Both the position numbers and the translations under genes were made by a program. DNA of 64,000 nt from NCBI RefSeq assembly GCF_050320075.1, contig NZ_CP190018.1; one strand, written 5' to 3'. The notes beneath the pieces were generated by a model, which had not been told where the DNA came from, did no database searches, and saw only the letters and a list, made by a program, of their open reading frames with translations. This DNA is from Escherichia coli (GTDB taxonomy: Bacteria > Pseudomonadota > Gammaproteobacteria > Enterobacterales > Enterobacteriaceae). Shown piece after piece: positions 17,488 to 19,525 of the stretch (position 1 is the stretch's first letter; each line of letters starts with the position of its first letter).

Positions 17488-17808
17488 TCAGTGCAGTACC
17501 GGCGCTTTTATGTGACGGGCACAGAGTTCATCCATCACAACCAGCCCGAGAAAGGACAGCGACGGCGCGGCCTTCAGGGGGCCGGATTCCATTAAATCTT
17601 CCAGCAGGGCACAGGCTATCTGACGCCCTTTTTCCTCACCGTGCTGGCGCAGATAAAAGCCTTCCAGCTCAGCGGCGATGGCCGCCTCCAGTGATTCAAG
17701 GGTGAGATGCGGGTAGCGGTGCTGACGTTCGCACACGGTCAGCCAGGCACAGGCGACAGCGCGACGGTAAAGGGCTGCGCGTAAGACGGGCGGTAAGGGT
17801 GTTTTCAT
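17488..17808 (-). CDS. Hypothetical protein, 106 aa, in the position and size of P4 orf106 (cnr)
   Basis: ORF ends 12 nt upstream of the alpha start; size and synteny match P4; no motif support. Confidence 0.45.
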
Positions 17809-17943
17809 TTGCTTTCCTCCCTGTGACAGATGACTGCATTCCGTGCCGGTTGCATTAACTGATAAGGCATATCTGCGTCTCCTGAAGACATGCGTATCCC
17901 TGCGCGAATACGCACATTTAATTTTTCGGGTGTCGTTTTTTAA

Positions 17944-18399
17944 TTACAGATAATTGCGGTAACTGTTATCCGGGGTGGTTTCCGGGTCAGGCTCCGTGCG
18001 GGGAATTTCCCGCCATTCCCGCGCCACCGGTGCCGCCCGGCTGACCGGAACAGGATCCTGCGGGTAAATATCCAGATATTTCTCCCGCCATTTCTGTAAT
18101 TCCGGGTCTCCGGCCATTTCTTTCAGTACCGCATGCCGGTTTACGGGGCTGCGTTTAAACAGGTCAGGACGGTCACAGGTAAATTCCCGCAGAAAACGCC
18201 CCAGCGGGATGTCTGTGGTGCGCCCGTCGGCGAGGATACGCACAAGGATACTGAATTTACGGCGGTACGGATTCCAGACAATGTCCGGGCAGCGGTACGG
18301 CATTTCCCACGGAATACCGTCTTCCAGAATGCCGACCACGGCCACATCGGAAAAACCGGCAGAACGGTAAATCTCACCGGGCTGGGGAAAATCAAACAT
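17944..18399 (-). CDS. Hypothetical protein, 151 aa, in the position and size of P4 orf151
   Basis: Size and synteny only. Confidence 0.45.
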   Translation of the reverse strand: MFDFPQPGEIYRSAGFSDVAVVGILEDGIPWEMPYRCPDIVWNPYRRKFSILVRILADGRTTDIPLGRFLREFTCDRPDLFKRSPVNRHAVLKEMAGDPELQKWREKYLDIYPQDPVPVSRAAPVAREWREIPRTEPDPETTPDNSYRNYL

Positions 18400-18919
18400 G
18401 CGTCCTGTCTCCCCGGTCTTTCTGCTGGGCGAGAAAATCGCGGCACAGGCCTTTGGCTTTCAGCTCATTCAGCACAAAATCAATATCTTCATTCAGGTAG
18501 CTGAAAATATGCGGAATGTAGAGCTGATGCAGGCCGGAGAGTTCACGGTGAATCAAATCACCCCCAACAAACTGGGATACGGCGCTGGCGCGGTTGAGCT
18601 TATGGTAAGCCTCAATGCTGAGGTGTTCACGGGCGTCATGACGCGCTGAGACGGTCTGAGGGGCTTTTTTATTACGCACGGGACACCTCCACCACCGGCA
18701 GACGGGCAGCAAGGGAGAGCACATAGTCACGGACAAGGGAACGGCGGGCGCTGCGTTCATCACCGGCGACGGTGCGAAGCATACAGATACGGGGATGACG
18801 GTCTGCGCGACGGACAGCCGCAAACACAAAGACAAATTCAGGGTGTGAGGGGGTAAGGGTCGTAGCCATAAGGCAACCTCCGATAACAGCGTAAATGACG
18901 CTATCGCCGGAGTTCTCAC
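18392..18919 (-). CDS. Hypothetical protein; real product is probably only the C-terminal ~100 aa (epsilon-like position); start uncertain
   Basis: The 3' end overlaps the orf151 start in ATGA fashion; the 5' half overlaps another ORF in a different frame, so the 175-aa ORF-track extent is probably too long. Confidence 0.3.
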
Positions 18920-19262
18920 GCTCGATGGCGATAGCCCAGACGGGGGTGAGAATACCGGCGTTATCGGAAACCGGCCAGCCCGGAGGCTGCCCCGCCTGAG
19001 CTACCATTGACTCAGTGGCATAACATGCGATTGCGAACAGGATCATACCTGCACGGCAAACCACACGCCACACCATAATCTGGTGCTCTGTGGCGTTGAT
19101 TGCGACACAAAAAAAGACGCATGGCGCGTCATATGTCGCCGATAACATACTCGGGTTCTCACGCCCGGCTGCCGATTTTGCGGCAGCGGAAAAACTATAT
19201 CCGCAAATGCCGGAAAAAGGCAAGCCAGAAAAAGGGAGTTTTTGCAGAGCGGGCATCATCAT
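18672..19262 (-). CDS. Hypothetical protein (about 196 aa if started at the ATG overlapping the vis/AlpA stop); may include a kil-like gene and non-coding immunity region
   Basis: ATGATGATG start cluster at 19254-19262 overlaps the upstream stop codon; the 3' end conflicts with the neighbouring ORF. Boundaries not resolvable by eye. Confidence 0.3.
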
Positions 19263-19525
19263 GCGTCGTACCCCCGTTTGCGTCCGGCAATGCGTCCGGC
19301 CATCCATGCGGTGACTTCAGAGTGCAGCCAGGCCACATTTTTACCGCCAAGACTCACCTGCGGCGGAAATTCCCCCTTACGGATGAGTTCATAGATGGTC
19401 GAGCGTGACAGGCCGCACAGGTGCATCACTTCCGGCAGACGTAAAAAACGCTCCTGCGTGATGTCCGGCAGCGGCATCAGTGGCGTCACAGGGGCGGGAG
19501 ACGGGGAAGAAAAAACAGCTTGCAT
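19259..19525 (-). CDS. AlpA/Vis-family phage transcriptional regulator (excision/late control), about 70-88 aa
   Basis: HTH region [28 protein letters not shown]; first gene of the leftward operon, beside the ori-like iterons, as vis is in P4. Confidence 0.7.

Follow-up and report, generated by a model that had tools for sequence, protein, structure and literature searches.

A probable P4-type immunity and early operon with a non-P4 immunity allele in a selC-integrated satellite prophage of Escherichia coli

What is encoded where two long leftward reading frames overlap between an AlpA/vis-like gene and the alpha gene of an E. coli prophage? A first-pass annotation of the window (the whole 64-kb stretch of DNA analysed here, from the chromosome around selC) had noted a 211-aa ORF (18672-19307, minus strand), a 175-aa ORF (18392-18919, minus strand) and two further ORFs of 151 and 106 aa. 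All of these, with the AlpA/vis-like gene and alpha, are present. It had guessed that the interval is of the type found in satellite phage P4, with kil, an immunity RNA and epsilon, and this was essentially right, as all three are there. It had also read the overlap of the two frames, which spans 248 nt in different frames, as a sign of non-coding DNA. That reading was wrong: an RNA gene, its promoter and its targets sit inside the frame of a protein gene, eta. The locus is best read as the 'left' operon, for immunity and early functions, of a satellite prophage of the P4 type, and it very probably works as in P4.

The satellite element and its P4 counterpart

A P4-like satellite prophage lies in the tRNA-Sec gene of the window. 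The features that delimit it, and the genes between epsilon and its alpha end, are as follows.

14641..25922 (strand not applicable): P4-like satellite prophage in tRNA-Sec (selC), about 11.3 kb, with 23-nt direct repeats at its ends
25906-25996, minus strand: tRNA-Sec
14792-15094: two 122-nt direct repeats, where P4 has crr
15140-17473, minus strand: alpha, primase, 777 aa, from the ORF list
17488..17808, minus strand: orf106, which is cnr (copy-number regulation); 106/106 residues identical to P4 ORF106; Pfam DUF5375, 211 bits
17944..18399, minus strand: orf151; 149/151 residues identical to P4 ORF151

The att core, TTTGGCGGAAGATCACAGGAGTC, consists of 23 nt from the 3' end of the tRNA and recurs as direct copies at 14641-14663 and 25900-25922. 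From the ORFs and the RefSeq annotation, the gene order in the element is int, a SIR2 cargo gene, psu, delta, sid, vis, eta, epsilon, orf151, cnr and alpha. The core gene set of P4-like satellites has been defined (PMC8628076), and the set int, psu, delta, sid, alpA/vis, epsilon and alpha is complete, in conserved order, between the att repeats. The P4 genes from int through alpha are all intact, and no frameshifts were found by the ORF list, annotation and protein comparison. An identical locus is present in RefSeq record NZ_CM128591, where the order is setC, a rhuM fragment, alpha, DUF5375, two hypothetical proteins, an 'Icd-like protein', an HTH regulator, sid, delta, psu, a SIR2-family protein, integrase and tRNA-Sec.

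Nucleotide alignment to P4 had been proposed in the first-pass annotation as a check. Window positions 17400-19700 align over their full length (2.3 kb) with P4 6896-9205 at 96.5% identity, and because the whole interval aligns end to end, chance is excluded and the resemblance is homology. At the matching places the P4 record has ORF106, ORF151, epsilon (95 aa), an old 'cI gene product' ORF and ORF88. The match of the two downstream ORFs to P4 orf151 and orf106, first noticed from their sizes, thus extends to their sequences. No family was found for orf151 in a Pfam search, and the P4 cnr gene belongs to a frequent family between epsilon and alpha (PMC8628076). DNA similar to the interval is present in 1116 of 5426 complete E. 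coli genomes.

Genes and RNA elements within the overlapping frames

The elements upstream of orf151 are listed in the direction of transcription.

19628..19645, minus strand: presumed Ogr/delta activator site of PLL, TGT-N12-ACA, upstream of vis; found by regular expression in a region that aligns with P4
19259..19525, minus strand: vis, AlpA-type excisionase/regulator, 88 aa; Pfam Phage_AlpA, 74 bits; 87/88 residues identical to P4 vis
18672..19262, minus strand: eta ORF; 172/199 residues identical to P4 eta; RefSeq name 'Icd-like protein'
19194..19223, minus strand: PLE, constitutive early promoter, TTGCCT, 18-nt spacer, TATAGT; identical in P4
19110..19187, minus strand: leader, isrK-like (Rfam), or seqA region, with a 5' hairpin, a GUGAGAA hairpin, seqA and t1
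19187-19168, minus strand: 5' hairpin of the leader; compensatory changes in 7/7 pairs (45 sequences)
19162-19156, minus strand: GUGAGAA presented by the leader hairpin
19139..19147, minus strand: seqA, upstream target, UGUUAUCGG, complementary to the CI loop
19109..19130, minus strand: intrinsic terminator t1, GACGC GCCAU GCGUC then U7, between PLE and cI, from a terminator scan
18924..19011, minus strand: cI immunity RNA gene, C4 antisense RNA family, Rfam C4 (RF01695)
18959..18973, minus strand: seqB, specificity loop of CI RNA, CGGUUUCCGAUAACG, complementary to seqA and seqC; UAUCCUGUGAAG in P4
18946..18952, minus strand: UUCUCAC, unpaired internal region of CI RNA, invariant in 45/45 sequences
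18900..18935, minus strand: second GUGAGAA hairpin, formed by the cI stem 3' arm (18935-18927) and the segment 18908-18900, with GUGAGAA (18919-18913) in the loop
18874..18888, minus strand: seqC, downstream target, UGUUAUCGGAGGUUG, holding the kil Shine-Dalgarno GGAGG (18881-18877)
18672..18869, minus strand: kil, 65 aa, C-terminal part of the eta frame; 65/65 residues identical to P4 kil
18392..18679, minus strand: epsilon, helper (P2) derepression protein, 95 aa, GTG start at 18679; Pfam PF25738; 94/95 residues identical to P4 epsilon

The TGT-N12-ACA site is presumed to belong to the late leftward promoter PLL, on what is known of P4 and P2 late promoters. PLE is the sole sigma-70-like site found in 18600-20100, and the Rfam isrK and c4-a1b1 matches begin just downstream of it. 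Its transcript probably starts near 19187 and carries, in order, the 5' hairpin, the GUGAGAA hairpin, seqA (8-9 nt), t1, the cI RNA, the second GUGAGAA hairpin and seqC. The name t1, used here for the terminator at 19109-19130, reportedly goes back to Briani et al. 2000 (cited in PMC4825925). Its hairpin is conserved with compensatory changes in the 45-sequence alignment.

The 211-aa ORF (18672-19307) is eta. Three consecutive ATGs (19262, 19259 and 19256) overlap the vis TGA (19261-19259), and starts at these would yield proteins of 196, 195 or 194 aa. The 1999 work of Forti and colleagues is said to give P4 eta three candidate starts and 197-199 aa; the shorter products here are due to a 9-nt deletion. 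Differences between the two eta proteins cluster at seqA, seqB and seqC, with a 3-codon deletion in addition. PLE, seqA, t1, the cI RNA gene, seqC and kil all lie within the eta ORF. PMC10111431, summarising Forti 1999, likewise places the RNA gene, promoter and targets of P4 inside the eta frame. A non-coding overlap was rejected, given that eta is a genuine frame in P4 and one that relatives conserve.

kil is the first translated gene downstream of PLE. Its ATG (18869) stands 8 nt after GGAGG, and the downstream target overlaps the RBS of this first gene, which is a feature of the C4/P4 CI family. Epsilon scores 170.3 bits against Pfam PF25738 'Derepression' (cutoff 27) and differs from P4 epsilon by the single change R36Q, and its predicted role, by analogy with P4, is inactivation of the P2 C repressor. 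Its start overlaps the eta stop by 8 nt, and a RefSeq CDS has identical epsilon coordinates. Only the last 95 codons of the 175-aa ORF (18392-18919), those of epsilon, are real, and the N-terminal extension is spurious. A 175-aa protein was rejected on the finding that most relatives, L022 among them, have no open frame running into the epsilon GTG from upstream.

The first-pass annotation had named intact conservation of both long ORFs in related elements as part of what would count against a hidden RNA. In most related loci the eta frame is open over ~200-217 codons, and in most the part of the 175-aa ORF that precedes epsilon is closed. Because the RNA gene is nested in the eta frame, even conservation of both ORFs could not have spoken against it.

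The covariance-model search that the first-pass annotation had suggested gave three matches above the gathering score. The C4 model matched over its full length (1-87) at 18924-19011 (minus strand) with 76.2 bits (gathering cutoff 45), with targets both upstream and downstream. The isrK model matched full length at 19110-19187 (minus strand) with 71.2 bits (cutoff 50), and the c4-a1b1 targets at 19148-19200 (minus strand) scored 50.8 bits (cutoff 46.7). The C4 and isrK families correspond to the CI RNA and the seqA region of the P4 literature (PMC3632133, PMC4825925, PMC10111431). The 88-nt segment of CI RNA folds into a long closing stem with two hairpins, the second of which presents the recognition loop. 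The minimum free energy is -47.2 kcal/mol (z = -5.58), with identical MFE and centroid structures. In a 51-sequence alignment 99.6% of cells are paired and 13/27 pairs carry compensatory changes. By analogy with P4, the mature CI RNA is predicted to run from about 19005 to 18927 (minus strand), or ~80 nt.

The loop seqB can form 9 contiguous pairs with seqA and 15 with seqC. UUCUCAC is complementary to both GUGAGAA boxes (19162-19156 and 18919-18913), and we infer a GUGAGAA/UUCUCAC pairing, which is without covariation support because the motif is invariant. The second GUGAGAA hairpin is 98.5% paired, with 4 compensatory pairs, and may be an alternative structure or a terminator. The Rho-dependent site timm was not locatable from sequence.

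Covariation of the recognition loop and predicted specificity

Related loci were collected by scanning for the pattern GCCGG-N12-CCGGTATTCTCACCCC, which was checked on the window and on P4. The scan matched 71 loci, 60 of them in metagenomes and the other 11 in species-representative genomes from Pantoea, Lelliottia, Rahnella, Ewingella, Buttiauxella and others. With P4 and the window these have 26 loop sequences, two of them chance, leaving ~24 loop types. The matches L008 (Desulfobacula) and L073 were dropped as chance, being without a C4-like context. A few loci (L054, L068 and L071) are natural chimeras in which loop and target are mismatched.

The ~24 loop types co-vary with their seqA and seqC targets. 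In the seqB-seqC helix six positions are changed on both sides in 22-26 of 51 sequences, and between seqA and seqB eight positions co-vary in 18-24 of 45. When the partner columns were slid as a control, pairing fell to ~40%. This covariation of loops with their targets supports an antisense mechanism, and the phylogenetic support for the predicted seqA/seqB/seqC interactions is strong.

Substitutions relative to P4 fall nearly all in three patches, which are seqA, seqB and seqC. There is also a divergent patch, with the 9-nt deletion, between t1 and cI (~19062-19024). The loop core reads CCGAUAAC against CCUGUGAA in P4, and in both targets GUUAUCGG stands where P4 has UUCACAGG. The three sequences thus change together with pairing kept, and the element differs from P4 at sites where identity at seqA, seqB and seqC would place it in the P4 immunity group. 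The predicted loop-seqA duplex is -11.5 kcal/mol for the cognate pair, against -1.5 and -4.1 for the cross-combinations with P4. The predicted loop-seqC duplex is -15.9 kcal/mol for the cognate pair and -10.5 for this CI loop with P4 seqC, a smaller gap because the Shine-Dalgarno portion is common to both. Since seqA, seqB and seqC all differ compensatorily from P4, we predict that the element is heteroimmune to P4; this is given as a prediction only, because cross-pairing with P4 seqC is still expected at -10.5 kcal/mol.

The allele here is common, and in E. coli it matches the P4 allele in frequency. The 41-mer spanning the loop is found exactly in at least 123 complete genomes of E. coli and, if a few mismatches are allowed, in 293; for the P4 version the corresponding numbers are 205 and 276. 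It is possible, though we hold the idea only tentatively, that the recognition loop of the P4-family immunity RNA is a diversifying 'address'. If this is true and its diversity is unsurveyed, the loops could define many satellite heteroimmunity groups made by module swapping. Elements with mismatched loop and target could then be escape ('virulent') satellites, or ones whose RNA silences competitors.

Proposed working of the locus and its known relatives

Promoter, terminator, RNA fold, complementarities, RBS overlap, nested frames and eta-vis translational coupling can be read from the DNA, and the functional steps joining them are all transferred from P4. Details of P4 t1, t4 and timm and of the length of P4 CI RNA follow secondary accounts. 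By analogy, the cI segment would be cut from the PLE transcript, with RNase P and PNPase as processing enzymes, and would accumulate in lysogens as a stable, cloverleaf-like RNA of ~80 nt. Through the loop seqB CCGAUAAC and the invariant UUCUCAC, this CI RNA would base-pair with newly made PLE transcripts at seqA and seqC. Pairing with seqA would promote termination at t1, and pairing with seqC would block kil translation and thereby allow termination before epsilon, orf151, cnr and alpha. In this way the prophage would stay silent and be protected against superinfection by satellites of its own type. When PLL fires upstream, ribosomes coming from vis would translate eta across the region and suppress termination, and transcription from the late promoter would escape CI control because eta is translated through the region. 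Epsilon, which would derepress a P2-type helper, and alpha, which would serve replication, could then be made. This is the mechanism published for P4, according to the summaries in PMC10111431, PMC4825925 and PMC3632133.

The same sequence could belong to a decayed, cryptic remnant in which immunity and derepression have been lost. Many P4-like elements of E. coli are cryptic, and a rhuM pseudogene fragment adjoins this one. However, the P4 genes from int to alpha are intact and free of frameshifts, the element lies between att repeats, the three RNA recognition sites match one another by complementarity, and neither promoter nor terminator has changed relative to P4, which together make a remnant improbable. 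A reading in which the 211-aa ORF codes simply for an Ash/Icd-like protein, whose conservation gives rise to the apparent RNA, can draw on a Pfam Phage_ASH match over residues 22-143 (79.9 bits), on a RefSeq annotation of just a protein and on a frame that is open in most relatives. We consider it extremely unlikely, given that compensatory changes keep the RNA helices and the seqA/B/C pairing while amino acids alter, and that Rahnella and Ewingella types keep the RNA and targets without the long frame. In P4, both products are known from genetics (PMC10111431).

An additional function has been weighed for the isrK-like leader (19187-19110), namely that it also acts in trans as an Hfq-binding sRNA on host genes, as Salmonella Gifsy-1 IsrK does. 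The full-length isrK match (71.2 bits) and the layout of a short terminated transcript (5' hairpin, single-stranded segment and intrinsic terminator with a U-run) are in keeping with this, and IsrK has been described as a structural homologue of P4 seqA RNA (PMC4825925). Against this, the conserved parts of the leader are fully explained by a cis role as CI target, and we regard the trans function as rather unlikely.

Under the preferred reading, a P4-type immunity and early operon, the locus is known in kind: it is a textbook example of P4 immunity that standard Rfam models pick up, and the only twist is a different, already common immunity allele. It opens no new biological questions, and its relevance is mainly to annotation. 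RefSeq has only 'Icd-like protein' and 'hypothetical protein' here and no RNA gene, although the RNA inside the ORF would regulate the whole element. The locus can serve as a guide to reading overlapping ORF calls in P4-like islands, and the recognition loop as a simple sequence marker predicting which satellites should exclude each other.

P4 itself is the closest known system. Gene order, promoter and terminator are shared with it, as are the fold of the RNA and the nested kil/eta frames; DNA identity is 96.5%, the kil and cnr proteins are identical and epsilon matches at 94/95 residues. The element here differs from P4 in the joint change of seqA, seqB and seqC, in its selC site and integrase region, and in a SIR2-family cargo gene that replaces P4 gop/beta/cII. 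Retronphage phiR73 is a P4-like satellite with the same tRNA-Sec (selC) integration site. Its cargo is retron Ec73, whereas the element here carries a SIR2 protein. The immunity specificity of phiR73 reportedly differs from that of P4, making the two heteroimmune (Sabbattini et al. 1996, cited in PMC7567579).

More distantly, P1/P7 c4 (with a1/b1 and a2/b2 targets and icd-ant) and the N15 CB RNA belong to the same Rfam clan (C4, c4-a1b1). P1/P7 c4 is a processed antisense RNA with two target sites in its own operon (PMC3632133), as is predicted for the RNA here, and the first gene downstream is in both a division inhibitor of the Icd/Kil type. In contrast, P1 c4 controls an antirepressor, and the system here would control satellite replication and helper derepression. 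N15-like phages have just 77-79% identity to the locus over ~230-300 nt. The leader matches the covariance model of Salmonella Gifsy-1 IsrK over its full length, but IsrK acts on orf45-anrP in a lambdoid prophage, and the genes downstream of the leader here are those of a P4-type early operon, with no orf45-anrP among them.

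A hairpin at the 3' end of the cI RNA and a variable patch upstream

Two features, one at the 3' end of the cI immunity RNA and one before the RNA gene, are located as follows:

18900-18935 (-), conserved hairpin whose 5' arm doubles as the 3' strand of the stem that closes cI
19024-19062 (-), short hypervariable patch inside eta, between the terminator t1 and cI

The hairpin and the cI stem are mutually exclusive, because they share this one arm, and the pairs of the hairpin were found to co-vary together with the cI stem in a three-way covariation. The hairpin may be the 't4' site of P4 or a processing switch. 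In the hypervariable patch, 9 nt (3 codons) are deleted relative to P4. The spacing between the upstream target, seqA, and cI differs among relatives, at about 172-181 nt in close ones and about 97-135 nt in distant ones.

Natural immunity modules with mismatched parts

Immunity modules with mismatched parts were found on metagenome contigs at three related loci, L054, L068 and L071. In L054, seqA is as in the window, but seqB (the recognition loop of the cI RNA) and seqC (the downstream target) are of P4 type. L068 has seqA and seqC as in the window together with an unrelated loop, UUUUCUUCGAGG, and its upstream box, the GUGAGAA hairpin-loop motif before seqA, is mutated to GUGGAAA. The seqA of L071 fits the loop of another element. 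These modules could be recombinants or immunity-escape variants.

Annotation of eta, epsilon and the cI region

Residues 22-143 of eta, the ORF at 18672-19262 (-), match Pfam Phage_ASH (PF10554), and the matching part overlaps the promoter PLE, seqA, t1 and the cI RNA gene. PF10554 is also the 'epsilon' marker in a published survey of P4-like satellites (PMC8628076). Because PF10554 matches eta, whereas epsilon belongs to PF25738, this marker may really follow the eta/cI region. The RefSeq annotation of an identical locus (NZ_CM128591) lacks an ncRNA feature for the cI RNA and leader, and the sole label on its cI region is 'host cell division inhibitor Icd-like protein'.

Far beyond the prophage, at 61098-61136 (+) of the window, lies a JUMPstart element (Rfam, 55 bits) without relation to the immunity region.

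Cargo, delta and element ends

14641-14663 and 25900-25922, 23-nt att core direct repeat, equal to the 3' end of tRNA-Sec and bounding the element
14792-14913 and 14973-15094, two 122-nt direct repeats beyond alpha, 81% identical to each other
20809-21054 (+), delta homologue of only 81 aa with a single Ogr-like zinc-finger unit
21843-24563 (-), 906-aa protein in the psu-int hotspot

The 906-aa protein occupies the hotspot that holds gop/beta/cII in P4, and consists of an N-terminal SIR2_2/ThsA-like domain followed by a long C-terminal region to which no domain was assigned; SIR2-domain proteins have been described from this hotspot (PMC9122126). The 122-nt repeat pair sits at the place of the crr replication region of P4. 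The delta of P4 is about twice as long as the homologue found here, and this short form resembles that of phiR73.
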